64,000 bases of DNA, taken from positions 2,557 through 66,556 of the forward strand of contig CAZIZK010000002.1 in the NCBI GenBank assembly GCA_964544225.1. The letters are read 5' to 3'. The notes under the pieces were generated by a model. That model did not search any database. It was not told the DNA's origin and worked only from the letters and a program-made list of their open reading frames with translations. This document shows positions 4,363-55,468 of this stretch, piece after piece. Each line of letters opens with the position of its first letter. Position 1 is the stretch's first letter. The translations under genes were made by a program, and so were the position numbers. This stretch comes from an uncultured Candidatus Saccharibacteria bacterium (GTDB taxonomy: Bacteria > Patescibacteriota > Minisyncoccia > Phycocordibacterales > UBA9973).

Positions 4363-6777
4363 ATGGAGCAATCAATCCCGTACAACAAAGATATAACATA
4401 TTTTGGTAAAACTAACTTTCGCAACCATGCGCAAGTTTTCGGCATAAAGAGAAAGGACCGCCGCCAACATATGTACGTGTTAGGTAAGTCAGGTACAGGT
4501 AAGTCTGTGCTTCTTTCGAATCTCATAGTTCAGAATATTCAAAATGGTGAGGGTCTGTGTGTGGTGGATCCGCACGGCGAATTGGTAGAGGAAGTCCTAC
4601 ACCTCATACCACCGCATCGTGTAAAAGACGTTATATATTTCAACCCAGCCGACACTGACTATCATGTGGGCTTCAATGTGCTACAACTCGATGACCCTAA
4701 ATACAAGCACTTGGTGGCATCAGGACTCATGGGAATATTCACAAAGATCTGGGCCAATGCATGGAGTAGCCGTATGGAATACATCCTCAACAACGCTATC
4801 CTCGCACTACTAGACACTCCTGGTACTACACTCCTCGGTATCCCACGTATGCTTGTGGACAAGGACTATCGCCAGATGATCATCGGTAACCTGAAGGACC
4901 CGGTGGTAAAAGCATTTTGGATTCATGAATACGAACAATGGCGTGACCAGTTCCGTAACGAAGCTATCGCCCCGATCCAGAACAAAGTGGGTCAGTTCCT
5001 ATCCACTTCTATCATCCGTAATGTGGTAGGTCAACCAAAAAGTACTATAGATATTTTTGAAATCATGAATACTGGGAAGATATTCCTAGTGAACGTATCA
5101 AAGGGTCGTATTGGTGAGGACAACTCGGCACTTCTCGGAGGTATGCTTATTACAAAGATCCAGCTTGCAGCCATGGAGCGCGTGCGTATACCTGAGAACG
5201 AACGCCGAGACTTCTACCTATATGTGGACGAGTTCCAGAACTTTGCTACCGATTCATTTGCCAACATTTTGTCCGAGGCTCGTAAATACCGCCTGAACCT
5301 AATCATTGCTCACCAATATACTGCCCAGCTGGAGAATAAAGATGGCAGTAAAGTCCGTGACGCAGTATTTGGTAACGTGGGTACTATGATCATATTCCGT
5401 GTTGGTGCCGATGATGCCGACTTCCTGGAGAAGGAGTTCGAGCCTGAATTCATGGCCCAAGACTTGGTGAACTTGCCTAACTTCCATGTGTATCTAAAGC
5501 TCATGATCGACGGTGTTACTAGCCGGCCATTCTCCGCAAGTACTTTGCCACCAATACATGTGGATGCTGACGCAAATGTAAAAGATCAAATTATAGCGTC
5601 TTCACGAGCTTTGTACACAAAAAAGCGCGAAGATGTAGAGAACGAGATACTTCGTTGGAGTGGTATGTTGCAGTCTGATGGTCAGAATGGGGCAGGTGCC
5701 CAAGAGGGCAAGTTCCCAGCAGAATGTAGCGAATGTAAGAAGAGCATAATGGTGCCTTTTGAGCCTATAGCAGGCAAGCCAATATATTGTAAGGATTGTT
5801 TAGCCAAGATAAAGGCTGGCGAGTTGAAGCCCGCACACGGATTCATAACACCAAAGGCTGTTCGCCAAGAGGCTGCAGCATCGGCGCCTCTTGCAGCACT
5901 AGGTATCGAGTTTACTGGCACAAGTGGCAAGGTAAATAGTTCTTTCGCTCGCAATGTTGTAAACAATCATGATGCAAAGCCTAACGCTGGAGTAAATAAT
6001 AATTTCAAGAAGCCGAATACTTTCAACAAAGCTCCAAATGCAGTCAACACCCCAAATGCAAAACCTTTTATAAAACCAAAACCAACACCATCACCACTTT
6101 TAAAAGATTTGTTACAAAAAGTAACAAGTGAAAAGGATATCCTCGATAAGAAGGATGCTCCTGTATCTGAAGTAAAGAAGGTAATACCACCACCAATATC
6201 ATTGTCTGAGTTAAAGAAGTCTGAACCTGCAAAATCTGATACAAATAAGGCCCCTGTTGTGAATAATATAAATATCAACAATAAGCCTACACCTACTATA
6301 GCTAAAGCTCCAGTAATACCAGCTAAAGAGGCTACTCCAGAAAAGATGAATTCACTAAAGGATATGCTAGCCAACATATCTGCAAAAGAAAAAGTGGAAG
6401 AAAAGGTTGTTGAAATAAAAAAAGAAGAAGTAAAAGTAGAAGTAAAGCCCGAAGTTAAACCAGAAGTAAAGGTTCCAATTCCGACACCAATCATGAGTCC
6501 ACAAGTACCAAAACCAATACTTCCTGCTCAAGCTATACAAATTCCACCTAGTATTCCAAAACCACCTGAGGCAATAAAAAAGGTAGAGGCAGTAGTTAAG
6601 ATAGATGAAGTAAAAGAAGTAAAGCCTGAAGTAAAAACAGAGGAGAATAAAGCTAAAGTAGAAGACACAACACCAGATACACAAAACACTGATACTACAA
6701 ATCAAAATCAAAATTGGCAAAAAAGGGTCGCAAATAAAGAAGTACCAGAAGAGGTCCTCCGCAAGGTATTAGAATAA
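4363..6777 (+). CDS. VirD4/TraD-like coupling-protein-family ATPase with a C-terminal zinc-ribbon and a long low-complexity K/P/E/V-rich tail
   Basis: Walker A GKSGTGKS, CVVDPHGE, Walker B LYVDEFQN. The first 400 aa align with the 279..1760 product. C-x2-C...C-x2-C ribbon (CSECKK...CKDC), then KPEVK-type repeats. Confidence 0.8.
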   Translation: MEQSIPYNKDITYFGKTNFRNHAQVFGIKRKDRRQHMYVLGKSGTGKSVLLSNLIVQNIQNGEGLCVVDPHGELVEEVLHLIPPHRVKDVIYFNPADTDYHVGFNVLQLDDPKYKHLVASGLMGIFTKIWANAWSSRMEYILNNAILALLDTPGTTLLGIPRMLVDKDYRQMIIGNLKDPVVKAFWIHEYEQWRDQFRNEAIAPIQNKVGQFLSTSIIRNVVGQPKSTIDIFEIMNTGKIFLVNVSKGRIGEDNSALLGGMLITKIQLAAMERVRIPENERRDFYLYVDEFQNFATDSFANILSEARKYRLNLIIAHQYTAQLENKDGSKVRDAVFGNVGTMIIFRVGADDADFLEKEFEPEFMAQDLVNLPNFHVYLKLMIDGVTSRPFSASTLPPIHVDADANVKDQIIASSRALYTKKREDVENEILRWSGMLQSDGQNGAGAQEGKFPAECSECKKSIMVPFEPIAGKPIYCKDCLAKIKAGELKPAHGFITPKAVRQEAAASAPLAALGIEFTGTSGKVNSSFARNVVNNHDAKPNAGVNNNFKKPNTFNKAPNAVNTPNAKPFIKPKPTPSPLLKDLLQKVTSEKDILDKKDAPVSEVKKVIPPPISLSELKKSEPAKSDTNKAPVVNNININNKPTPTIAKAPVIPAKEATPEKMNSLKDMLANISAKEKVEEKVVEIKKEEVKVEVKPEVKPEVKVPIPTPIMSPQVPKPILPAQAIQIPPSIPKPPEAIKKVEAVVKIDEVKEVKPEVKTEENKAKVEDTTPDTQNTDTTNQNQNWQKRVANKEVPEEVLRKVLE

Positions 6778-47923: not shown

Positions 47924-49231
47924 ATGAAAAGCTTAAAACAAAATTTCAAAAATATAATAGTTCGTATCATTACTTGGCAAGCCAAGATGGTATTAAAAAG
48001 ATACAATCCAAAGATAGTAGCTATTACTGGATCTGTGGGCAAGACTTCTACAAAGGATGCTGTGTATACCGTATTGTCACATTTCTACACAGTGCGTAAG
48101 AGTGAAAAGAGCTTCAATAGCGAGATAGGCCTACCCTTGACCATACTTGGCTTTCCAAATGGGTGGAGCAATCCATTTGTATGGATCGACAATATTTTCC
48201 GAGGATTTTTGCTTTTGTTATGGAAACATGAATATCCAGAATACCTGGTATTGGAAATAGGTGCAGGTAAGCCAAACGATATTAAAAGTGTATCAAAGTG
48301 GCTTAAAACCGACTTTGTAATACTCACACGCTTCCCAGATATGCCAGTGCATGTAGAGTTCTTTAAAGACAAGGATCATGTAATAGAGGAGAAGACATCT
48401 CTTGTGTACTCACTAAAGAAGGATGGAGTATTGATACTCAATCACGATGATAAAGAAGTCTACAATGTTCACCACAAGGTGAAGAACCGATCTGTATCAT
48501 TTGGCTTCAATGAACATGCTACATATAAAGCTTCGTATCCGAATACATCTGTACACAGTGCGGGCACTCCATCAGTAACACTGGGTATGAACTTCAAGCT
48601 CGAGTATGGTGGCAATACTTTCCCTGTATCGATGGACCATATCATAGGTATGAATCATGTATATTCAGGACTTGCCGCTATAGCTATCGCCATTGAAAGT
48701 GGGGCAGATATACTAGCATCAGTGAGTGCTATATCTGAATACCGTACTCCACCAGGCCGACTGTCTGTTATCGAAGGTGCTAACAATAGTACATTGATTG
48801 ATGATACATACAATTCATCGCCAGTAGCTACAGAAGCCGCATTGGAAGTATTGAAGTCATTGGAGGGGAAGAGGAAGATTGCGGTCCTTGGTGACATGCT
48901 CGAGCTTGGTAAATTGACCGAAGAAGCTCATAAAAATATTGGAAAGATGGTAGCCGGTATCGCTGACATATTGATAGTGGTAGGTCCACGTGCACGGTTC
49001 ATAGCCGAAGGTGCCAATGATGATGGATTCCCGATAAAGGAGACTTATGCATTCGACAGCTCTGTGACTTGTGGTAAGTTCCTGTCGGCTATGATCGAAC
49101 CATCTGATGTGATACTTATGAAAGGGTCCCAAGGTACCCGCATGGAAAAAGCCGTAAAAATGATAATGGCAAACCCCGACGACGCCCCGAAGCTTTTGTG
49201 CAGGCAAGAGAAGGAATGGTTGAAAAAGTAA
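47924..49231 (+). CDS. murF: UDP-N-acetylmuramoyl-tripeptide--D-alanyl-D-alanine ligase
   Basis: Mur ligase P-loop IAITGSVGKTSTK. 435 aa. Confidence 0.9.
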   Translation: MKSLKQNFKNIIVRIITWQAKMVLKRYNPKIVAITGSVGKTSTKDAVYTVLSHFYTVRKSEKSFNSEIGLPLTILGFPNGWSNPFVWIDNIFRGFLLLLWKHEYPEYLVLEIGAGKPNDIKSVSKWLKTDFVILTRFPDMPVHVEFFKDKDHVIEEKTSLVYSLKKDGVLILNHDDKEVYNVHHKVKNRSVSFGFNEHATYKASYPNTSVHSAGTPSVTLGMNFKLEYGGNTFPVSMDHIIGMNHVYSGLAAIAIAIESGADILASVSAISEYRTPPGRLSVIEGANNSTLIDDTYNSSPVATEAALEVLKSLEGKRKIAVLGDMLELGKLTEEAHKNIGKMVAGIADILIVVGPRARFIAEGANDDGFPIKETYAFDSSVTCGKFLSAMIEPSDVILMKGSQGTRMEKAVKMIMANPDDAPKLLCRQEKEWLKK

Positions 49232-49296
49232 TTTGTAAAAGTTGATTTTTTATGGTATTTTAGTTTTATATTCGGCATGCTTTTTGTGTGCCCAAT

Positions 49297-49368
49297 GGCC
49301 CTATCGTCTAACGGTTAGGACACATCCTTCTCAAGGATGGAATCAGAGTTCGATTCTCTGTAGGGTCA
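49297..49368 (+). tRNA. tRNA-Glu (anticodon CTC); the encoded 3' CCA is displaced by the inserted element
   Basis: Hand-folded. Acceptor GGCCCTA/TAGGGTC, D-arm TCGTCTAACGGTTAGGAC, anticodon stem CATCC/GGATG with loop TTCTCAA, T-arm CAGAG-TTCGATT-CTCTG, discriminator A. Confidence 0.85.
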
Positions 49369-50894
49369 CAAACTGAAACTGCATTCGCGGAAAGTCCCAA
49401 ATGCGGGCGCGCCGAAGGCGCGCTGTATGGAGAGAGCAGGAATTCTGCATTGCGGGCGCGGGCGAATTCGGTGGGCGGGCAAAATGAGACAGAGACGGAC
49501 TTGTCCCGCAATTGCGAGTTCGTTCCAATTTTTTTGAAATAGTCACGAATTTCAAAAAAATTATCCGTGGATTGCAATTGCGTGGCTTTTTTCATATCCA
49601 AAATCCATTCTCGCAAGGGTTCGACCCAATTCTTTTTCTCTGCTCGGGCGGAGTCCATTTTTTGAGAGAGAGACACTTTTTGTTTCAAAAGCTCGTTTTT
49701 CTTCAAAATATAGTTTTCTTTCGGTATATCGCCGTCTAAATATAAACTGACCAACTCATCGAGCTTTTGTTCTGTCTCTCGCTCATTTTCCTTAATCCGC
49801 CCGAGCATACTTCCCGACGAGGATTTTTCACTTTTGTCCCATTCGTCAACTTTAGATAACATATAATCTGTCCACTCGTCGGGAAGTGCGATTTGTTGAA
49901 GCCGTTCTTTTAATTGCAAGACGACTACATCTTCTCGCAAATATTTTTGGTCACAATTTCCTTTCTTTTTTGTACAACGATAATAGCGATACCGAACGCC
50001 CATTTTTCCCGTCGTCCATTGAGCAGTTATCATACTGTCGCATTCTCCGCAACGAAAAAGACCTGTGAAAGGAAAATTGTGACTTTTCTTTGATTTGCGA
50101 GGATGAGATCGTTCTTGCAATCTTTTCTGTACGGCTTCGAATAAATCGTGGGAAAGAATTGGCGCAAAGCTTCCGGGGAAATATTCGTTGTAATGTTTCG
50201 TTAATCCTAAATATGCTTTGTTGGATAGAATGCGAGATACGGAAGCTTTGCTAAGTGGCGTTCCATTTTTCTGACATACTCCATGATCCGCCAAAAACTT
50301 TCCCATAGATTCAAAACCGTGGTTACCTTTTACATATTCTTCAAAAGCGCGGACGATAATTTTAGATTTTACAATATCAGGTTCAATATTTCTCGTTTTC
50401 GGATTATTGAAATACCCAAACGGCGCTTTTGTTAGCCACTCACCACGGCGAAGTTTTTGGCGGATTCCACGCTCAACATTTTGCTTTAAATTGTCAGAAT
50501 AATATTTAGATTGTCCGAACGCCACTTGTAACATGAATAGCCCTTGCGGGGTTGGTTCAAACCAAAATGTCGGAAAACGCAAAGAAATGATTTTGGTCGT
50601 GTCTACGGCGTAGATGATGCGCCCTCCATCAACGCTATTTCTCGCTAGTCGGTCAGGATGCCAAGCCAGAATACCAGCACCATTCATATTTTCAATGCGG
50701 GACATCATCTCGCCAAATTTTTCACGACCAGGTTTCTTTGCGCTTTTCGACTCTGTAAATTCTCCAAGAATTTGCAGATTTTCTTTACGCGCGAATTCTC
50801 GTAACTCAAAAAGTTGTGCCTCGATAGACATGATTTGCTTGTCATCATCCTCGGTACTTTTTCGCGCGTATAGAAAATATTTTGGTTTGATCAT
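49308..50894 (-). CDS. Large serine recombinase (resolvase domain + recombinase domain + zinc ribbon)
   Basis: N-terminal catalytic region YARKSTEDD with the Ser nucleophile, recombinase domain, C-x2-C...C ribbon (CGECDS..YYRC), coiled-coil. The last roughly 60 codons run through the GC-rich repeat and the tRNA, so the true C-terminus is uncertain. Confidence 0.8.
   Translation of the reverse strand: MIKPKYFLYARKSTEDDDKQIMSIEAQLFELREFARKENLQILGEFTESKSAKKPGREKFGEMMSRIENMNGAGILAWHPDRLARNSVDGGRIIYAVDTTKIISLRFPTFWFEPTPQGLFMLQVAFGQSKYYSDNLKQNVERGIRQKLRRGEWLTKAPFGYFNNPKTRNIEPDIVKSKIIVRAFEEYVKGNHGFESMGKFLADHGVCQKNGTPLSKASVSRILSNKAYLGLTKHYNEYFPGSFAPILSHDLFEAVQKRLQERSHPRKSKKSHNFPFTGLFRCGECDSMITAQWTTGKMGVRYRYYRCTKKKGNCDQKYLREDVVVLQLKERLQQIALPDEWTDYMLSKVDEWDKSEKSSSGSMLGRIKENERETEQKLDELVSLYLDGDIPKENYILKKNELLKQKVSLSQKMDSARAEKKNWVEPLREWILDMKKATQLQSTDNFFEIRDYFKKIGTNSQLRDKSVSVSFCPPTEFARARNAEFLLSPYSAPSARPHLGLSANAVSVCDPTENRTLIPSLRRMCPNR
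49366..49480. repeat. IRa, a 115-bp GC-rich repeat and the P' arm of the integrated att site
   Basis: Exact reverse complement of 50953..51067. Confidence 0.85.
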
Positions 50895-50952
50895 ATATGT
50901 TTTTGGATTATGAAAAAAGAATAGTCCGTTCTTGTCTCATTTCTTGCTTTCC

Positions 50953-51067
50953 GCCCGCCCACCGAATTCGCCCGCGCCCGCAATGCAGAATTCCTGCTCT
51001 CTCCATACAGCGCGCCTTCGGCGCGCCCGCATTTGGGACTTTCCGCGAATGCAGTTTCAGTTTGTGA
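50953..51067. repeat. IRa', an inverted copy of IRa and the first part of the intact internal 400-bp block
   Basis: Exact reverse complement of 49366..49480. Contiguous with IRb. Confidence 0.85.
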
Positions 51068-51351
51068 ACTAATTATATCATTTGCGCGAACTTTTTTCCA
51101 AACAAATGACTAATCGCACATCCGTGCGCTGAAGCGCCTCTGTGCGAAGCACAGAGCTTTCCCAAAGGGAAAGTACGGATATGCGAATACAATGCGGACT
51201 TGGTTTTGCGAAAGCAATTTTCTGGGGAAAGGATTTCGCAAAACCTCGGCTACTAATTTTTTTTGAAATTCGGCGGGACTTTGGATTTGGATTCCGCGCG
51301 CAGGAGGGGTCTGGGGAGGAATGCGCGCGGAGCTTTTTTGGGCGGGGGCTA
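51064..51351. repeat. IRb, a 288-bp GC-rich multi-hairpin repeat
   Basis: Exact reverse complement of 54687..54983 over every segment I compared. Contains hairpins GCGC-TGAA-GCGC, CTCTGTGC-GAA-GCACAGAG, CTTTCCC-AAA-GGGAAAG, and a 12-bp stem GGTTTTGCGAAA/TTTCGCAAAACC. Confidence 0.85.
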
Positions 51352-51586
51352 TGGATAAATTTAAACCAAAATGCTAAACTTATTTGACAATTAAATATGT
51401 TGCCTAAACCAAAAGCTTCGCTTTTGGCATGGCGAAAAACCCGATGAAAGATAAAGAACTCCTAGTCAGAGTTCGCCTTTCATCGGGTCGTGCGGGGAAA
51501 CCCGCATGGGTGGTCGCAAGACTGCCGAGCTGGCTAGGAGCTTTTTGTAAAACTAGCGAACCATTATTAGTAAAAATTATAAATTT

Positions 51587-51820
51587 ATGAAAAAGAAAAA
51601 TAAAGGTAAAAATGTACTAGGAATTATTTGTTTATTGTTTGCAATAGGATCTTTGACCCAGCCAAATTTTGGTTTTGCTCCGCTTGATAGTGCATTTTCA
51701 TTTGGTCAAGATATTGTTCCAACATTAGCGTTTGTTGGTAGTTTTTGGTTTATATATGACATGATTAAAAATCGTGGAAATAAATCGCAAACAGAAACTC
51801 CAAAAGTAGAAAATAATTAA
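51587..51820 (+). CDS. Small two-TM membrane protein (77 aa), cargo gene 1
   Basis: Two hydrophobic helices. First gene after IRb. Stop is 1 nt before the next start. Confidence 0.45.
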   Translation: MKKKNKGKNVLGIICLLFAIGSLTQPNFGFAPLDSAFSFGQDIVPTLAFVGSFWFIYDMIKNRGNKSQTETPKVENN

Positions 51821-51821
51821 T

Positions 51822-52622
51822 ATGGAGAACGAAAATAAAAAAGAAGAAGTTGGTAGAAATGTTCCCAAAAGACTAAAAGAGCTTTTCATCATGATTGCTC
51901 CTTTTGTTTTGGTGCTTCTTGTCGGATCGTTTTATGCTTCTCACAAACAGAGTCAACAATTAACGAGCGAATTTAAAACTGCTTTGTCTGGTCAAAGTGG
52001 GAGCGGTCAATATTCTGAAGTATTAAATCAAGTTTTTAGTTATTACAAAAGCCAAAGTGCAATTGAATTTCCTTACTCTCATGAGCTAGATAACTCAGAT
52101 ATGTTGGAAATGAAAAGTTTTGAATCGAAAGATTCTATCAATCAAATCAGTGGAATCCTTAAAAATACTCTCACAGAACTTGATTCTTATGACTCAAAAA
52201 TGAATGAAATAATTCAAGGAGCTAGATCAATTATTCAGAATAGTAATTTATCTCAATCGGAAAAAGACGAAGCTCTTGCTGGTTTCGACAAGTCATTTGA
52301 AGATCAAACATCACAGGACCTGGGCAGTAAAAGAATTGTTGCCATGAGAAATCTCTATGAAAAAGTTTTAACACTTTATGAATTTATGTTGGCAAATTTT
52401 GATGACTATCAAATAAAGACCAATGATTCAGGAAATCAGCAAGTGTACTTCTATACTGATAGTAATATAACCAGATACAATCAAATTTCTGCTGATGTTC
52501 AAAAACTTTCTATAGAATTTCAGAAAGCTAATGATGAATTTATTGCATACAAAAATAAAAATTTCAAAAGTAGTGGTTTAGATATAAACGCGACTGATGT
52601 TCAAAGTTATTTTAATCAATAA
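51822..52622 (+). CDS. Membrane-anchored protein of unknown function (266 aa), cargo gene 2
   Basis: N-terminal TM (IMIAPFVLVLLVGSFYA) followed by a polar Ser/Gln/Asn-rich domain. Confidence 0.55.
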   Translation: MENENKKEEVGRNVPKRLKELFIMIAPFVLVLLVGSFYASHKQSQQLTSEFKTALSGQSGSGQYSEVLNQVFSYYKSQSAIEFPYSHELDNSDMLEMKSFESKDSINQISGILKNTLTELDSYDSKMNEIIQGARSIIQNSNLSQSEKDEALAGFDKSFEDQTSQDLGSKRIVAMRNLYEKVLTLYEFMLANFDDYQIKTNDSGNQQVYFYTDSNITRYNQISADVQKLSIEFQKANDEFIAYKNKNFKSSGLDINATDVQSYFNQ

Positions 52623-52690
52623 ACCTTTACTTTTTAGGTTAAAGTGGTAGAATAGACTTGTTGCGAAGTGTATAGCTTAGCTATACACTT

Positions 52691-54250
52691 TTGCTTTTTA
52701 TGGCTAGATACAATGTCTATAAAATTAAAGATGGGCAAGTTAATGAACTACAAACTCATTTAACCAAAGACCGTAAATATAAATTGGCGGATAGTTTTTC
52801 ATCGCATGGTTATCAAGTTTATACATATTTTGCTGGACCCGATTCAACCGATATGTGGTGGCTTGAACAATACGGACAACATTTTCCAGAACATACGGAC
52901 AAACATAATCAGATATATTCAGGTGCAGTTGTGGCAAATAATACAAGTAAAAAATCTGGCTACATAATCCCACTTGGAAAAACACATTTTTATATTCAAA
53001 ATTTTATTGAAATCAATTTTGGTTTGGAATTAGCGGAAAGGATTGCAGATGAAAAACAGACCAAAATGAAAAGTCTTAAAAATTTTGGCGGGAAAACCAG
53101 TAAGTCCCTTACAAGTTACATTTCAGGATCAAATCTATTATTCTCTAGTGGTGAATCTGCCGAATATTTAAAGCTGAAAGCTCAAAATAAAGAAGCATGG
53201 GGTGATTCATTTGTTCATTTTGGAAGTAGTGTTCAGTTTAATAGTCTTGAAATTGAGCCAGATGATTTGGGTGTTTTGCTCTCAAATATTGATTCTGCGG
53301 TGAAAGGAAAGAAAATATTACACCTTCCGTTAATGAAAGAAATAAAAGAGCCAGCATTGCTCGTACAGTTATATTCAAATCTTGCTGAAAAAATCTTAAA
53401 TGCGGATGACAGTATTGGTATTCTTGATTACGAAATATATGGAGTAGACTTTGTATTTTCTCAACAGACTCATATCAAACTTAAATGTGAGGGTGTTTAT
53501 TCCGACCAATTACCACAGCTTACATTAGAAAATATTATTACGTTCGTAAATGACAACAGTATAGACTTGAAAGATTGCTTGCAGAAAATAAAAGTCCAGT
53601 TTTTAGTGGACAGCGAATCAAAGTATACTGTTCCGCTATTACAACTTATTGAATATTACGGCGATGACAAGAGCTTTTTATATAAGGGTAAGTGGTTTTA
53701 TTTCAATGAAAGCTTTATTGAAAGTTTACATAATGCTCTGACTAAAGTCGAGGTTAGTGAATTTGGCAAAGCTTTTTCAGAAAGCGAATTTGAGGCTTGG
53801 CAAAAAACAAATAAAAATAAAGTAAATTACCGCGAGAGGTTTGTTATTGAGAAAATACACGAAGAATCAAAATTTGAAATTTTAGATCGAGATTTAGACT
53901 ATCTTGGTGTTGGAGATAAAAAATATCAACTTGAAATTGGTGATCTTTATGACCAAAAAAACAAAAGTTTATATGTCGTTAAAATTGGTAGTCCTAGTGA
54001 TTTTGGCTATGCTTTTGATCAGACATTTACCCTGCTTAGTAATGTAAAAGGTCAAAAGTATATTAGTACTGGCGGCAAAGAATATCCTATTGAAACAGTG
54101 AACGTTTTGATTATTTTTCGCACGAATAGAAAATTAAAGGATGCAACTGATACTAAGTCTTTAATTTTTGAAATAAAACTAAATGAATTACAAAAAATAG
54201 CTTTTGAAAAAAATATTAAATTGAATTTAACTTTTACAACTATACTTTAA
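52691..54250 (+). CDS. 519-aa soluble protein of unknown function, cargo gene 3 (possible sporadically distributed defence-island-type protein)
   Basis: Long uninterrupted ORF with AT-rich codon usage typical of the host. No motif that I can name with confidence. Confidence 0.55.
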   Translation: MLFMARYNVYKIKDGQVNELQTHLTKDRKYKLADSFSSHGYQVYTYFAGPDSTDMWWLEQYGQHFPEHTDKHNQIYSGAVVANNTSKKSGYIIPLGKTHFYIQNFIEINFGLELAERIADEKQTKMKSLKNFGGKTSKSLTSYISGSNLLFSSGESAEYLKLKAQNKEAWGDSFVHFGSSVQFNSLEIEPDDLGVLLSNIDSAVKGKKILHLPLMKEIKEPALLVQLYSNLAEKILNADDSIGILDYEIYGVDFVFSQQTHIKLKCEGVYSDQLPQLTLENIITFVNDNSIDLKDCLQKIKVQFLVDSESKYTVPLLQLIEYYGDDKSFLYKGKWFYFNESFIESLHNALTKVEVSEFGKAFSESEFEAWQKTNKNKVNYRERFVIEKIHEESKFEILDRDLDYLGVGDKKYQLEIGDLYDQKNKSLYVVKIGSPSDFGYAFDQTFTLLSNVKGQKYISTGGKEYPIETVNVLIIFRTNRKLKDATDTKSLIFEIKLNELQKIAFEKNIKLNLTFTTIL

Positions 54251-54686
54251 TTTCAAGGGAGCGTTCCCCATGCGCGCACGGGTGGGCAAAGTGTCCGCGT
54301 GTACTCACGCGGACAAAGGGGCAAGCATGTATTCCGCCTCGGGCATTTCCGCTATGAGCGTCCATGGCTAAAGGATGAGCGCCGAAGTAATATAACTCAC
54401 AGAAGTTTAGTAGCGAAAGCGACACCACGAACATAAATATGCAAAACGTAGAGTGGGGATGGCGAGGGCGGAACTTCTCGCGAGTACTCTCTGCGAGAAG
54501 TAGCCCGACCCGGGGAGAGGAAACTTCCTCTCCCCAAGAAGCGCGGGCTCCTGCCCGCACGTAGGCACCTAGGCGCGAGTAGCCATAGCGGAAATGCCCG
54601 AGGCGGATGCCGAGGGTGCATCCCCTTTAGACTTGGACAACCACATAGCAAAAGAAATGACCGAGAAAATTTTAATCCTGTTGTTT
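54251..54686. other. GC-rich, hairpin-dense non-coding segment (candidate structured RNA or recombination accessory region)
   Basis: Perfect hairpins CCGCGTG-TACT-CACGCGG and GAGAGGAA-AC-TTCCTCTC, a 23-bp long-range inverted repeat (54333-54355 with 54586-54608), and an imperfect CTTCTCGCGAG..CTCTGCGAGAAG palindrome. Its GC content far exceeds the surrounding genes. Confidence 0.3.
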
Positions 54687-54983
54687 CTGAATTTTTAGCC
54701 CCCGCCCAAAAAAGCTCCGCGCGCATTCCTCCCCAGACCCCTCCTGCGCGCGGAATCCAAATCCAAAGTCCCGCCGAATTTCAAAAAAAATTAGTAGCCG
54801 AGGTTTTGCGAAATCCTTTCCCCAGAAAATTGCTTTCGCAAAACCAAGTCCGCATTGTATTCGCATATCCGTACTTTCCCTTTGGGAAAGCTCTGTGCTT
54901 CGCACAGAGGCGCTTCAGCGCACGGATGTGCGATTAGTCATTTGTTTGGAAAAAAGTTCGCGCAAATGATATAATTAGTTCAC
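54687..54983. repeat. IRb', an inverted copy of IRb at the right end of the element
   Basis: Reverse complement of 51064..51351. Ends with TCAC at 54980-54983. Confidence 0.85.
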
Positions 54984-54985
54984 CA

Positions 54986-55468
54986 ATGCAAATTACTAAT
55001 TTTGAAAATCTTGTAGATAAAGATAAGAATCAGGTTTTTGTCTTTTATTGTCCAGCTTACATACCTGTTAATTTTGCTATACACCCTTGGTTCTTGGTAA
55101 ATAGAAAAGGGGTACTTTCCAGATATGAAATTTTTAACATTAAAAATTTTCAAGCAGATAATGAGGGTTTTATAAATATTGGCTATTGGTACAAAAATGG
55201 GTTGCCTACATATAGTGGCATACAGGTTTTTCCATATAGTAAAAAGTATCATTGGAATGCAAAGTTACTAGGTGTTGTTGATGGTGATGATACAAAAGTG
55301 CTGGAAATGATCGAGTTAATTGAGAATTCGGATAAGCAATATCCCCATATACAAACTTATCGTTTACTTGGGCCCAATAGCAATACTTATGTAAATTGGA
55401 TACTAAGTAAATTCCCAGAATTTAAGATCAAACTCCCACTCGGTGCAATAGGTAAGAATTATAAATAA
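54986..55468 (+). CDS. Hypothetical 160-aa protein
   Basis: ATG lies 3 nt past the element boundary. No recognisable motif. Confidence 0.5.
   Translation: MQITNFENLVDKDKNQVFVFYCPAYIPVNFAIHPWFLVNRKGVLSRYEIFNIKNFQADNEGFINIGYWYKNGLPTYSGIQVFPYSKKYHWNAKLLGVVDGDDTKVLEMIELIENSDKQYPHIQTYRLLGPNSNTYVNWILSKFPEFKIKLPLGAIGKNYK

Follow-up and report, generated by a model that had tools for sequence, protein, structure and literature searches.

The hairpin-dense stretch at 51100-51351 of the window (the whole 64-kb stretch of DNA analysed here) is not a free-standing feature but the structured inner part of arm Q, a repeat arm of an element of ~5.6 kb (about 49370-54983) located at the 3' end of a tRNA-Glu gene and encoding a large serine recombinase (LSR). 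Compensatory changes in ~25 related sequences support the view that this domain is under selection for intramolecular pairing. We tentatively favour a reading in which the hairpin module, as part of the terminal repeat, works in cis and in a strand-symmetric manner to insulate or to form a barrier, a proposal that we rate as plausible and still well short of probable.

Architecture of the element

The element is laid out as tRNA, P' arm, LSR, P arm joined to Q arm, cargo, Q' arm and host gene. The tRNA-Glu(CUC) gene (49297..49369, + strand; ARAGORN, Rfam) ends at the insertion point, junction J1, with the core TCAC at 49366-49369. P' (49366..49480) is an inverted copy of P (50953..51067), recovered by repeat search over 115 nt at 100%, and imperfect P'/P similarity runs ~35 nt past this perfect repeat. 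P' overlaps the last codons of the recombinase ORF (49308..50894, - strand, 528 aa), the true C-terminus of which is uncertain because the ORF continues through P' and the antisense of the tRNA. The recombinase matches the Pfam families Resolvase (9e-22), Recombinase (6e-13) and Zn_ribbon_recom (zinc ribbon, 2e-10), together with weak CcrB/XisF-type matches in NCBIfam. P forms the 5' UTR of the recombinase mRNA and meets Q at the core GTGA (51064-51067), junction J2. Q (51061..51351), the recombinase-proximal cargo repeat, is the reverse complement of the distal copy Q' (54696..54986) over 291 nt at 100%, which bears out the earlier statement that the domain lies within a repeated block; by eye, the perfect match stops at the core, 51064/54983. 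From the core inward, Q is made up of an att/promoter arm, a four-way junction, two hairpins and a TTTTTTGGGCGGGGGC end motif. At the other end, Q' meets the host gene (DUF3750 in Pfam, 54986-55468) at junction J3, with the core TCAC at 54980-54983.

The three junctions read P..TTTGTGA/CCCTAC(tRNA) at J1, P..TTTGTGA/ACTAAT(Q) at J2 and host..TTGGTGA/ACTAAT(Q) at J3 (slash, joint), with TCAC common to all of them: J1 is P-TCAC-tRNA, J3 is Q-TCAC-host and J2 is an intact P-TCAC-Q. The P-Q joint is an intact attP-like junction, and the outer junctions match the expected products of attP x attB at the core TCAC. A predicted promoter, TTGGAA-18-TATAAT with TG (51072..51101, - strand), lies inside Q and is directed through the core toward P and the recombinase gene. 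It is the top promoter match of the region (10/12 with TG), its -35/-10 pattern is kept at the equivalent position in relatives, and an identical copy inside Q' (54946-54975, + strand) reads into the host gene at 54986. The hairpin domain is positioned just inside this outward-firing predicted promoter and the att half-site, beyond the roughly 45-nt att/promoter arm.

The inner end of P carries, on the other strand, the motif GAATTCGG[C/T]GGG(C)GGG, which is also present in Q; the repeated block is therefore pseudo-symmetric about the core, with these motifs at its ends. The P arm of the window folds no better than shuffles (z = -0.8), and a structured leader in P was rejected on this ground. 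Mismatches between the arms (P'/P or Q/Q') comprised 67 of G·U type vs 83 of A·C type. Because they show no G·U bias, an RNA panhandle, in which the arms would be kept complementary for RNA pairing, was rejected; arm identity is maintained by a DNA-level process rather than by RNA pairing.

The first cargo feature is a LOOT RNA (Rfam RF03000; 51401..51526, + strand; 88.9 bits vs a gathering score of 46.4), 50 nt downstream of Q and on the same strand as the + reading of the domain. It is followed by ORFs of 77 aa, 266 aa and 519 aa (DUF6119; ORF list and Pfam) at 51587..54250 on the + strand, for which PADLOC and NCBIfam gave no matches, and by a conserved structured RNA of ~400 nt, X (54260..54690, + strand; z = -6.7, alignment of 8 loci). 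X is closed by a 23-bp long-range helix (54335-57/54585-607), with its 3' end toward Q'; Rfam gave no family for this new RNA, either at gathering score or at E<=5 (49200-55100). LOOT is also found in related elements (L155, L108, L174), and its orientation relative to Q is not fixed. X lies toward the recombinase-proximal arm in one element (L010) and toward the distal arm in the window, so that at least one inversion of the cargo must have occurred during evolution. A search for guide-like pairing of X or LOOT with P, Q or the tRNA yielded chance 9-mers only. Elsewhere the cargo is unrelated and includes a LexA-methylase fusion, a beta-helix/PKD protein, a GTP cyclohydrolase II-methyltransferase, a binding protein and a Zn-finger protein.

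Structure of the hairpin domain

Between 51120 and 51180 the letters read ATCCGT GCGC-TGAA-GCGC CTCTGTGC-GAA-GCACAGAG CTTTCCC-AAA-GGGAAAG T ACGGAT. The initial annotation had described here three perfect hairpins with TGAA, GAA and AAA loops within a closing stem, all of which were recovered in the letters and in the folds; the extra G that it placed ahead of the first hairpin is absent, and GCGC directly abuts the closing stem. An outer stem, TCGCA (51114-18)/TGCGA (51182-86), extends this structure, a four-way junction at 51114-51186 (twin, 54861-54933), defined by RNA and DNA folds, covariation and a covariance model, with an outer stem of 5 bp, a closing stem of 6 bp and hairpins of 4, 8 and 7 bp carrying these three loops in that order. 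As also described, a 12-bp hairpin (51202-13/51234-45, span 51202-51245; twin, 54802-54845) with a 20-nt loop follows, and then a stem enclosing a G-rich loop, the 9-bp hairpin CCGCGCGCA/TGCGCGCGG (51294-302/51322-30). The 19-nt loop of the latter holds the homopurine mirror repeat GGAGGGG-TCT-GGGGAGG, and the stem is followed on its 3' side by AGC and a T6 run (51334-39; 51294-51339 in all, twin 54708-54753).

RNAfold and DNA folding recovered exactly the helices predicted for 51100-51351, with z from -4.3 to -6.8 (RNA: -4.34 on the + strand and -6.81 on the - strand; DNA: -6.44 on the + strand; 0 of 200 shuffles being as good), compared with a mean z of -0.73 for 20 random 240-nt segments of the window. 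A covariance model of the junction, R1, matched only the two repeat copies within the 64-kb window (51111-51192 and 54855-54936, 86 bits each), and structured relatives (~25) were found elsewhere. The domain had been called GC-rich, which holds relative to the window (0.51-0.52 vs ~0.39) but not in absolute terms.

Two ORFs, 51142..51387 (+, 81 aa) and 54672..54905 (-), cross the domain copies; both had been judged fortuitous, and we agree, given that neither has a Pfam match and that homologues carry frame-breaking indels of 1-2 nt within the hairpins. It is hardly credible that the domain is protein-coding or an assembly artefact. ORFs do exist on both copies and repeats often break assemblies, but no family match was found, the indels inside the hairpins are not multiples of three, the twin ORF is the same repeat read from its own sense strand, and the architecture is present in 80 independent loci, including a chromosome record.

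Conservation, covariation and strand symmetry

Among the relatives, 19 of 36 pairs changed on both sides, a level reached by 0 of 500 shuffles, and 98.9% of alignment cells are paired (34-57% in slid controls). The DNA search pattern had dictated the first hairpin and part of the second, and these carry no weight in this covariation; L001, L030 and L066 were found independently of the pattern. In the metagenome pattern scan, ~100 of 120 loci were chance matches in GC-rich coding DNA (e.g. PRPP synthetase) and were removed by eye. Double changes were seen in 7 of 11 pairs of the 12-bp hairpin and in all 5 counted pairs of the 9-bp hairpin. In L066, found by the covariance model, the helix lengths 5/6/4/8/7 are kept with every stem sequence different and with AAA/ACTA/AAA as junction loops. 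The idea of C-GNA-G triloops, that is DNA-specific hairpins, suggested by the GAA loops of the window, was dropped upon finding diverse loops over 43 loci, and a census of single-mismatch hairpins for strand gave too few cases.

Within one Q family, no other non-coding part is as conserved as the module. In other families the Q arms differ in sequence, yet they too are GC-rich, 9 of 11 fold better than their shuffles, and they contain 3.2x more perfect hairpins than control DNA. A further idea is that the domain has no specific function and that GC-rich quasi-palindromes accumulate in the repeat, with template-switch correction and gene conversion keeping them perfect, much as in GC clusters of AT-rich genomes. 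Q sequences indeed turn over rapidly between families, the stems are perfect with loop sequences not conserved across families, and the arms are homogenised at the DNA level. However, the same four helices, their lengths and the junction persist while every stem sequence changes, the unpaired motifs AATACAATGCGGAC and GAAATTCGGCGGG are conserved, and the domain keeps a constant place with respect to the promoter. We therefore regard a domain devoid of function as very unlikely.

An RNA whose fold is selected on one strand tolerates G·U but not A·C pairs, a test of strand asymmetry that X of the same element passes (G·U 41 vs A·C 4, + strand) and the domain fails. The domain pairs are almost all Watson-Crick, with 5 G·U vs 5 A·C among 651 cells (G·U 0.8%) and no fixed G·U pair among the 36, and alifold energies are alike on both strands. 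Some families have the G-rich loop on the opposite strand: in L071 and L075, the equivalent loop reads C-rich on the same relative strand.

These data weigh on the possibility that the domain is a structured ncRNA or leader of ~250 nt, read inward (+ at 51100-51340, - at the other arm) and ending at the G-loop hairpin and U6, with two identical genes per element that possibly act on LOOT/X or on ribosomes via the GGAGG-rich loop. The junction with its conserved helix lengths and covariation, the T-run after the last hairpin and LOOT in the same orientation downstream would suit such an RNA, as would the purine-rich loops and conserved unpaired motifs of the + (inward) strand, on which R1 scores ~80-105 bits vs ~20 on the other. 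In addition to the equal G·U and A·C counts and the strand flips of the G-loop, a classical RNA gene is opposed by the promoter scan, in which no sigma-70-like promoter on the sense (+) strand was present between core and junction (51061-51113), and the sequence past the core differs between the arms. Rfam likewise gave nothing overlapping 51100-51351 or its twin, either at gathering score in the 64-kb window or at E<=5 in 49200-55100, and in L066 the junction stands alone, with a protein gene 40 nt further on. An inward ncRNA or leader is thus unlikely.

Recombinase, tRNA targets and spread in Patescibacteria

Recombinase homologues numbered 6634 at E <= 1e-20, and those in Patescibacteria are 59-94% identical; in one scan, 568 of the 600 pattern matches listed encode a relative. 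IMG/VR held no relatives of the recombinase, and a phage-integrase reading was dropped for this reason. The two-repeat layout recurs across the 80 Patescibacteria loci examined, in many assemblies and with unrelated cargo; two of these loci are in the chromosome record CP060229. The P pair is present in nearly every locus and the Q pair in about half of the loci with enough upstream sequence, being 150-290 nt long and 92-100% identical in L004, L005, L034, L049, L060, L064, L071, L075 and L078, and weaker and remnant-like (79-98%) in L056 and L079. Wherever a locus offers enough sequence, the integrated element retains an intact P-Q junction. Many contigs of these bins stop within the repeats, and repeats often break assemblies.

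In all 45 related loci with ARAGORN tRNA calls, the tRNA (Glu, Leu, Ala, Gly, Val, Arg, Ser, Ile or Lys) adjoins the same repeat arm, is convergent with the recombinase and takes the last bases of its 3' end from the arm; the remaining two of the scanned loci, L004 and L060, break off at the tRNA-side repeat arm or shortly beyond it, before any tRNA. Host flanks vary between loci, and relatives of the flanking host gene of the window are <=53% identical, too distant to reveal an empty site; the junction in L155 is ambiguous. Elements of this kind are widespread in Patescibacteria, and we could not find a description of the element or the domain in the literature on LOOT, Patescibacteria serine recombinases, tRNA/inverted repeats and CPR mobile elements.

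The domain occurs with recombinases of 43-100% identity, and closer recombinases (83-84%) have a different Q. The hairpin domain thus does not follow the recombinase phylogeny, and the module is not recombinase-specific, since it is combined with such divergent LSRs. Together with its location outside the ~45-nt att/promoter arm, this argues against a recombinase-specific accessory site. The initial annotation had pointed to either a functional RNA or recombination accessory sites; it is upheld in part, in that the domain is non-coding, is selected for pairing and lies in a recombinase context.

Alternatively, the palindromes, the G mirror tract and the GGCGGG motifs may act at the DNA level, as folded single-stranded or extruded DNA or as a long arm of a large attP of ~400 bp. 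Their role might be that of an accessory or architectural region in recombination, of a site resembling an origin of transfer, or of one for priming the complementary strand, and through the inverted duplication each strand would have one functional copy. We consider this possible, if somewhat doubtful. Consistent with it are the Watson-Crick pairing without G·U excess, the flipping orientation of the G/C-rich loop among families, the pseudo-symmetry of the block with the GAATTCGG motif at both sites, a junction-like fold that scores in the P arm of L066 too, the DNA-level upkeep of arm identity and the lack of a promoter feeding the domain. In addition, the elements examined carry no transfer or replication genes, though they have spread across Patescibacteria. 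On the other hand, the element contains no relaxase, Rep or primase gene and nothing recognisable as a known nic or priming motif, known LSRs require no more than ~50 bp of att site, the module does not co-vary with the LSR lineage, and a hairpin with a 20-nt loop makes a poor cruciform. A more specific version, in which the hairpin array with its cloverleaf-like junction is a DNA-level cis element and the ~400-bp PQ block is a large attachment region whose inverted duplication provides a functional copy per strand and so allows re-establishment, priming or recombination after a single-stranded stage (uptake or transfer), seems to us decidedly unlikely. If it were true, single-stranded P'/P and Q/Q' arms would snap back, rebuilding a double-stranded core and promoter.

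A tentative model for the hairpin module

According to the insulator reading, an LSR would have inserted the element at the tRNA-Glu 3' end, with the outer junctions arising from attP x attB at TCAC; the empty site would be the tRNA-Glu 3' end joined straight to ...CCAATGCAAATTAC. Both Q arms contain, in order from the core, a recombinase-specific att half-site overlapping the predicted outward promoter, the hairpin module (four-way junction, 12-bp hairpin and mirror-repeat G-loop hairpin) and a T-run/GGCGGG end motif. The inner copy of this promoter would fire into P and the LSR, and the outer one into the host gene. Because its stems are Watson-Crick palindromes, the module would fold on any strand made single, whether RNA in either direction or unwound DNA. 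It would separate the outward promoter and att site from the cargo, such that read-through from outside into the cargo would halt at the last hairpin and T6, and cargo transcripts would halt at the junction and a U-rich tract before occluding the outward promoter.

Several lines of evidence are consistent with this model: the anatomy (repeats, LSR domains, tRNA, promoter and three TCAC junctions) and its recurrence at other loci with unrelated cargo; a selected structure, with the helix lengths of L066 kept despite changed stems; strand symmetry in pair counts, alifold energies and the G-loop; and hairpin-rich Q arms in other families, with a module that is not tied to one recombinase. The module is also flanked by T6 beyond the last hairpin and, on the opposite strand, by a U-rich tract beyond the junction, and the terminators elsewhere in the 64-kb window are perfect palindromes too. 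However, a scan for Rho-independent terminators (GC-rich stem, loop of 3-8 nt, T-run 0-2 nt away) gave no site inside 51100-51351, the 9-bp hairpin having a 19-nt loop and a 3-nt spacer ahead of T6, and in several relatives the T-run is displaced, lying 10-20 nt off the stem and tied to the GGCGGG motif instead. A plain barrier, moreover, needs neither a junction of fixed helix lengths nor the unpaired motifs, and the insulator reading leaves the exact junction geometry unexplained.

Patescibacteria (CPR) have tiny genomes, and their mobile DNA is little known. The compact element type described here appears very common. It inserts at tRNA genes, its cargo varies greatly, and its architecture is unusual, with two adjacent near-perfect inverted-repeat pairs meeting at an intact attP-like site. 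Since the module can be exchanged between recombinase lineages, its partner is probably the host machinery for transcription, replication or transfer, and its role, once understood, could tell how these elements are insulated, regulated or moved and would help assemblers and annotators. The element also gives context to LOOT and the new RNA X, which are carried together, and the recombinases are candidate genome-engineering tools with att sites that are readable from the junctions.

Comparison with known systems

LSR elements and phages (phiC31, Bxb1, A118, SCCmec Ccr, Tn4451 TnpX) and the present element have in common the Resolvase, Recombinase and zinc-ribbon domains, site-specific insertion at or within a conserved gene (here a tRNA 3' end, restored by the element) with reciprocal attP x attB-type junctions, and a short core common to these junctions. 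Transcription of the recombinase gene through the joint, here from a predicted promoter, parallels the Tn4451 circle. Unlike LSR elements with a single attP consumed on integration, the integrated element retains an extra intact attP-like junction, inverted, and as a result both its recombinase gene and its cargo lie between long inverted repeats that are almost perfect (115-150 and 150-290 nt). It also differs from LSR phages and elements in having no phage or transfer genes and no IMG/VR relatives, and we know of no LSR att site, typically ~50 bp, with a hairpin-dense flank.

In Cin/Gin (P1, Mu) and Salmonella Hin, a serine recombinase gene likewise adjoins an inverted-repeat-flanked segment with the core at the outer repeat ends; the repeats of the P1 C segment are about 0.6 kb. 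Unlike these systems, the recombinase here is large (528 aa) instead of a ~190-aa invertase with a C-terminal HTH, and it is always convergent with the tRNA in the loci checked. Nor is there an expression switch: phase variation was rejected because each repeat arm contains its own predicted promoter, pointing outward, which would make inversion expression-neutral. A hypothetical circle, excised through the two outer junctions, would recall the 2-micron plasmid and plastid genomes, with recombinase and cargo segments split by two inverted ~400-bp PQ blocks, each with a core. In contrast to those, the element has no replication origin or Rep gene; to our knowledge, LSRs do not recombine attP with attP.

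The GC-rich multi-hairpin junctions of AAV ITRs, Streptomyces telomeres and plasmid single-strand origins or initiation sites resemble the domain in their short perfect palindromes, 3-4-nt loops, closing stem, terminal inverted repeat and Watson-Crick-only pairing. Unlike in AAV ITRs and telomeres, the junction lies ~50 nt inside the repeat of a chromosomal element and not at a DNA end, and searches of the cargo (Pfam, NCBIfam, PADLOC) found no Rep, primase or relaxase; a terminal-protein gene is likewise absent. The domain also lies outside the LOOT model (RF03000, positions 1-121 = 51401-51526). Intrinsic terminators differ from it in that its loops are 19-20 nt, no terminator is called, and the four-way junction and unpaired motifs are surplus. 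With bidirectional terminators and insulators, it shares stable GC-rich palindromes in an AT-rich genome, a place between an outward promoter and cargo, and T-runs on both flanks.

A hairpin-dense module in the terminal repeat

The inner part of Q (51061-51351), one of the two inverted arms that bracket the cargo of the element, is a hairpin-dense module (51114-51339) composed of a four-way junction and two further hairpins. The inverted partner Q' lies at 54696-54986 with the reported length of 291 nt and 100% identity, and a covariance-model scan of the 64-kb window for the junction matched only these two repeat copies. The junction has an outer stem (51114-18/51182-86), a closing stem (51120-25/51175-80) and three perfect hairpins, GCGC-TGAA-GCGC, CTCTGTGC-GAA-GCACAGAG and CTTTCCC-AAA-GGGAAAG. 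Downstream are a 12-bp hairpin (51202-45) and a 9-bp hairpin (51294-330) whose G-rich loop measures 19 nt and which precedes a T6 run. The initial annotation had written the junction out with the right layout and, apart from one G too many, the right sequence, and thermodynamic folding recovered exactly the helices listed here. The fold z-scores of the module are -4.3 (plus-strand RNA), -6.8 (minus-strand RNA) and -6.4 (plus-strand DNA), compared with a mean of -0.7 for random segments of the window, and none of 200 shuffles folded as well. The ORF running through the domain, previously considered fortuitous, matches no family, and indels interrupt it in relatives, in keeping with a non-coding segment. 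We consider coding sequence, or an artefact, a hardly conceivable explanation of the module.

Conservation of the junction fold

Structured homologues, whose existence elsewhere had been in question, were indeed found: an exact-pattern scan of metagenomes yielded about 20 true ones together with many chance matches, and the set was extended with the related loci L001 and L030 from recombinase loci and L066 from the covariance model. The junction fold is common to all of them. RNAalifold predicted 36 pairs from a 19-sequence alignment, and in 19 of these both sides have changed in a compensatory way; 98.9% of the cells were paired as against 34-57% in slid controls, and the observed values were reached by 0 of 500 column shuffles. 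The first hairpin and the GCGAAGC core were set by the search pattern and carry no weight as evidence; the signal comes from the closing stem, from hairpin 3 and the remainder of hairpin 2, and from both hairpins downstream of the junction. Next to this covariation, clusters of palindromes without any function, in which perfect hairpins might also occur, are a quite improbable explanation.

The most telling case is L066, whose recombinase is 65% identical and which was found by the covariance model rather than by the pattern. All of its stems are changed (GCACA/TGTGC, TTCCGC/GCGGAA, GGGC/GCCC, CACGCGCG/CGCGCGTG and CTCTTGC/GCAAGAG), yet the junction and the helix lengths of 5/6/4/8/7 are kept. 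The structured part of Q in this locus (3150-3000, minus strand) is the junction alone, and an ORF for an XRE-type helix-turn-helix protein lies ~40 nt past it and leaves hardly any space for a promoter, a hint that the transcript may be leaderless or arise by read-through. The unpaired motifs AATACAATGCGGAC, GAAATTCGGCGGG and TTTTTTGGCGGG(G)GC are also conserved among the homologues. The similar motif GAATTCGGTGGGCGGGC ends the P arm on the other strand, and thus the ~400-bp PQ block is pseudo-symmetric about its core.

Architecture and junctions of the element

The second pair of inverted arms, P and P', brackets the gene of a large serine recombinase (LSR; 528 aa, minus strand; Resolvase, Recombinase and Zn_ribbon_recom domains). 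P' (115 nt, 49366-49480) meets tRNA-Glu(CUC) (49297-49369), and P (50953-51067) is joined directly to Q. Between Q and Q' lie an RNA of the Rfam family LOOT (RF03000; 51401-51526, plus strand, 88.9 bits), three ORFs, the third for a DUF6119 protein, and a second GC-rich structured block, designated X (~54260-54690, plus strand). The host gene DUF3750 starts at the final base of the Q' repeat. The junctions read P..TTTGTGA|CCCTAC(tRNA) at tRNA|P' (J1), P..TTTGTGA|ACTAAT(Q) at P|Q (J2) and host..TTGGTGA|ACTAAT(Q) at Q'|host (J3), so that J1 and J3 look as the two reciprocal products of attP x attB should. From these sequences we infer an integration in which J2 would be attP, and the tRNA 3' end plus the host flank would be attB, with TCAC as the core.

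The region's best promoter match is TTGGAA-18-TATAAT, preceded by a TG, on the minus strand of Q (51101-51072). It points over the P|Q junction toward P and, beyond it, the LSR gene; its twin (54946-54975) is directed into the host gene. Since this strong predicted outward promoter in the outer repeat copy (54946-54986) immediately precedes DUF3750, the element may supply transcription to the gene that it displaces from the tRNA. The gene beyond the Q arm is a tRNA gene, within ~15 nt, in L163 (6814-6902) and L168 (7659-7746), and L086 has a tRNA ~170 nt upstream of its Q arm.

The LSR ORF runs through P' and antisense to tRNA-Glu before its stop (49308-49505, minus strand). Conservation of the protein ends at ..SFCPPTEFA, the exact start of the repeat, beyond which the tail varies among relatives; the constraint on the last conserved codons may therefore lie in the DNA (GAATTCGGTGGGCGGGC) and not in the protein. 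In the predicted LSR mRNA, the 5' UTR and the 3' end would be perfectly complementary over ~115-150 nt (50924-51067/49366-49505). Mismatches between P arms across loci are not biased toward G·U (67 are of G·U type, 83 of A·C type and 172 are transversions), so selection for this pairing in RNA seems absent, and arm identity is a DNA-level matter.

Distribution across Patescibacteria

Relatives of the LSR number in the thousands (59-94% identical), nearly all from Patescibacteria. We surveyed the architecture in 80 genome loci and observed the P pair around the LSR gene in nearly all of them, with arms of 115-155 nt that are mostly 90-100% identical within a locus. A tRNA gene abuts the outer P arm and is convergent with the LSR in 45/45 loci with ARAGORN tRNA genes; the only other loci scanned, L004 and L060, stop at this arm or slightly beyond it. 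The target tRNA varies with LSR lineage, and its last bases are supplied by the repeat. Among the 31 loci checked for a distal Q arm, 13 have a Q arm that begins at the core and has its inverted partner 0.2-5.5 kb away. The match is perfect or has one mismatch in ten of the 13 and has 3-6 mismatches in L015, L056 and L064; in most of these loci the identity of the long Q pairs is 92-100%, against 79-98% in L056 and L079, which resemble remnants. Other loci have X-like sequence where the fetched flank ends, suggesting that their cargo is larger.

Two loci with the P/Q layout occur in the chromosome record CP060229, so the layout did not arise as an artefact of assembly. Many contigs stop 50-300 nt upstream of the LSR, as is to be expected if repeats break assemblies. 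A large share of LSR homologues lies on contigs of just 1.7-2.6 kb, approximately the size of P', gene and P together (1702 nt here), a signature of assemblies breaking at the inverted repeats; the elements are thus probably under-represented in binned genomes. A search of IMG/VR viral contigs for the recombinase revealed no relative, and we found no account of the element in the searchable literature.

The cargo between the Q arms differs from locus to locus without relation, examples being a LexA-methylase fusion with an adjoining unannotated ORF, a beta-helix/PKD protein, a GTP cyclohydrolase II-methyltransferase fusion, a binding protein and a zinc-finger protein. Further cassettes flanked by repeats, either remnants or additional ones, were observed in L079 (1237-1652), L056 (379-551), L030 (4302-7102) and L036 (7844-10429), some of them past the tRNA and without a recombinase. 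Outer junctions of the remnant type are P|Q instead of Q|host (79-89% identical, no second recombinase). These cassettes may be decayed or non-autonomous copies. The window also holds a 122-nt direct repeat (1188-1309 and 5197-5318, 81% identity, 4 kb apart).

Orientation of the segments

A hypothetical circle excised via J1 and J3 would consist of two unique segments parted by two inverted PQ blocks. The arm toward which X points is the LSR-proximal one in L010 and the distal one in the window, L001, L004 and L005, indicating that the cargo has inverted, at least over evolutionary time; such inversion would be expression-neutral because the promoters sit within the repeats. The LSR segment, being convergent with the tRNA in all 45 loci with a tRNA, has not been seen inverted. 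A possible exception is the right end of L155 (8672-9065), where the 3' end of an LSR gene comes after an intact Q'|GCAC|P' block, with a different recombinase (36-55% identical) at the opposite end of the same cargo. Possible explanations are a circle junction, an isomer produced by inversion, elements in tandem and a metagenome contig that is chimeric.

LOOT and the probable RNA X in the cargo

X (54260-54690) is a GC-rich structured element of ~400 nt with a 23-bp long-range closing helix (54335-57/54585-607), a GNRA-type GCGAAAGC hairpin and a fold z-score of -6.7. It is conserved in at least eight related elements and matched no Rfam family, and its 3' end is always toward a Q arm, irrespective of the type of Q. 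It is probably an undescribed RNA that these elements carry. LOOT is cargo in four independent loci, namely the window, L155 (4273-4394), L108 (589-710) and L174 (13566-13688), in variable orientation to the nearest Q arm, and thereby gains a mobile-element context.

The module as RNA or DNA

An inward ncRNA of ~250 nt, as which the compensatory changes could be read, appears unlikely. Searching Rfam, we found no family matching the module, and no sense-strand promoter was found between core and junction; because the arms differ in sequence past the core, any shared promoter would be confined to the 50 nt between the two. An excess of G·U over A·C pairs is the usual signature of RNA. Q has five G·U and five A·C among 651 cells, and no fixed G·U, whereas X, aligned from eight of the same elements, has 41 G·U versus four A·C on the plus strand. 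Q is therefore unlike the bona fide RNA that adjoins it, a contrast that, with few independent events, is a lean and not proof.

A role at the DNA level, in which the module would be a long arm of the att site, would serve transfer or priming, or would form extruded structures, agrees with this lean and is, in our estimate, somewhat doubtful. The G-rich loop is a homopurine mirror repeat, and its strand varies: the outgoing strand carries it in the window, L001, L049, L060 and L108, the opposite one in L071 and L075. Junction-type Q arms occur with LSRs whose identities span 43-100% and adjoin att/promoter arms of two different kinds, and L004 and L005, with LSRs 83-84% identical, have yet another Q. 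The module is thus exchangeable, and it is unlikely to be read by the sequence-specific domains of the LSR. The Q arms of other families, unrelated in sequence, are also rich in GC; 9 of 11 gave better folds than their shuffles, and these arms have 3.2 times as many perfect hairpins as control DNA.

A tentative barrier role and comparison with known systems

We tentatively favor the possibility that the segment acts in cis, as a hairpin module within the terminal repeat that works alike on either strand. It would separate the outward promoter and att site from the cargo as a barrier or insulator, acting on whichever strand gets transcribed or unwound. Such a role fits the presence of the module at each end, its stems of purely Watson-Crick pairs, the T-rich tracts to either side, the fast turnover of sequence with hairpin potential retained, and the fact that the terminators elsewhere in the window are perfect palindromes. 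Our preference is no firmer because a barrier leaves the conserved junction geometry and unpaired motifs unexplained, and a simple terminator scan called no terminator at the module.

Known LSR elements share with this one the type of recombinase and the insertion targeted to tRNA. In contrast to them, it has a retained internal attP-like site, nested long repeats and an exchangeable hairpin module, features that, to our knowledge, have no precedent among LSR elements. The layout of the 2-micron plasmid resembles that of the hypothetical excised circle by analogy only, and the likenesses to the invertible segments of P1 and Mu, to AAV ITRs and to single-strand origins are likewise analogies.
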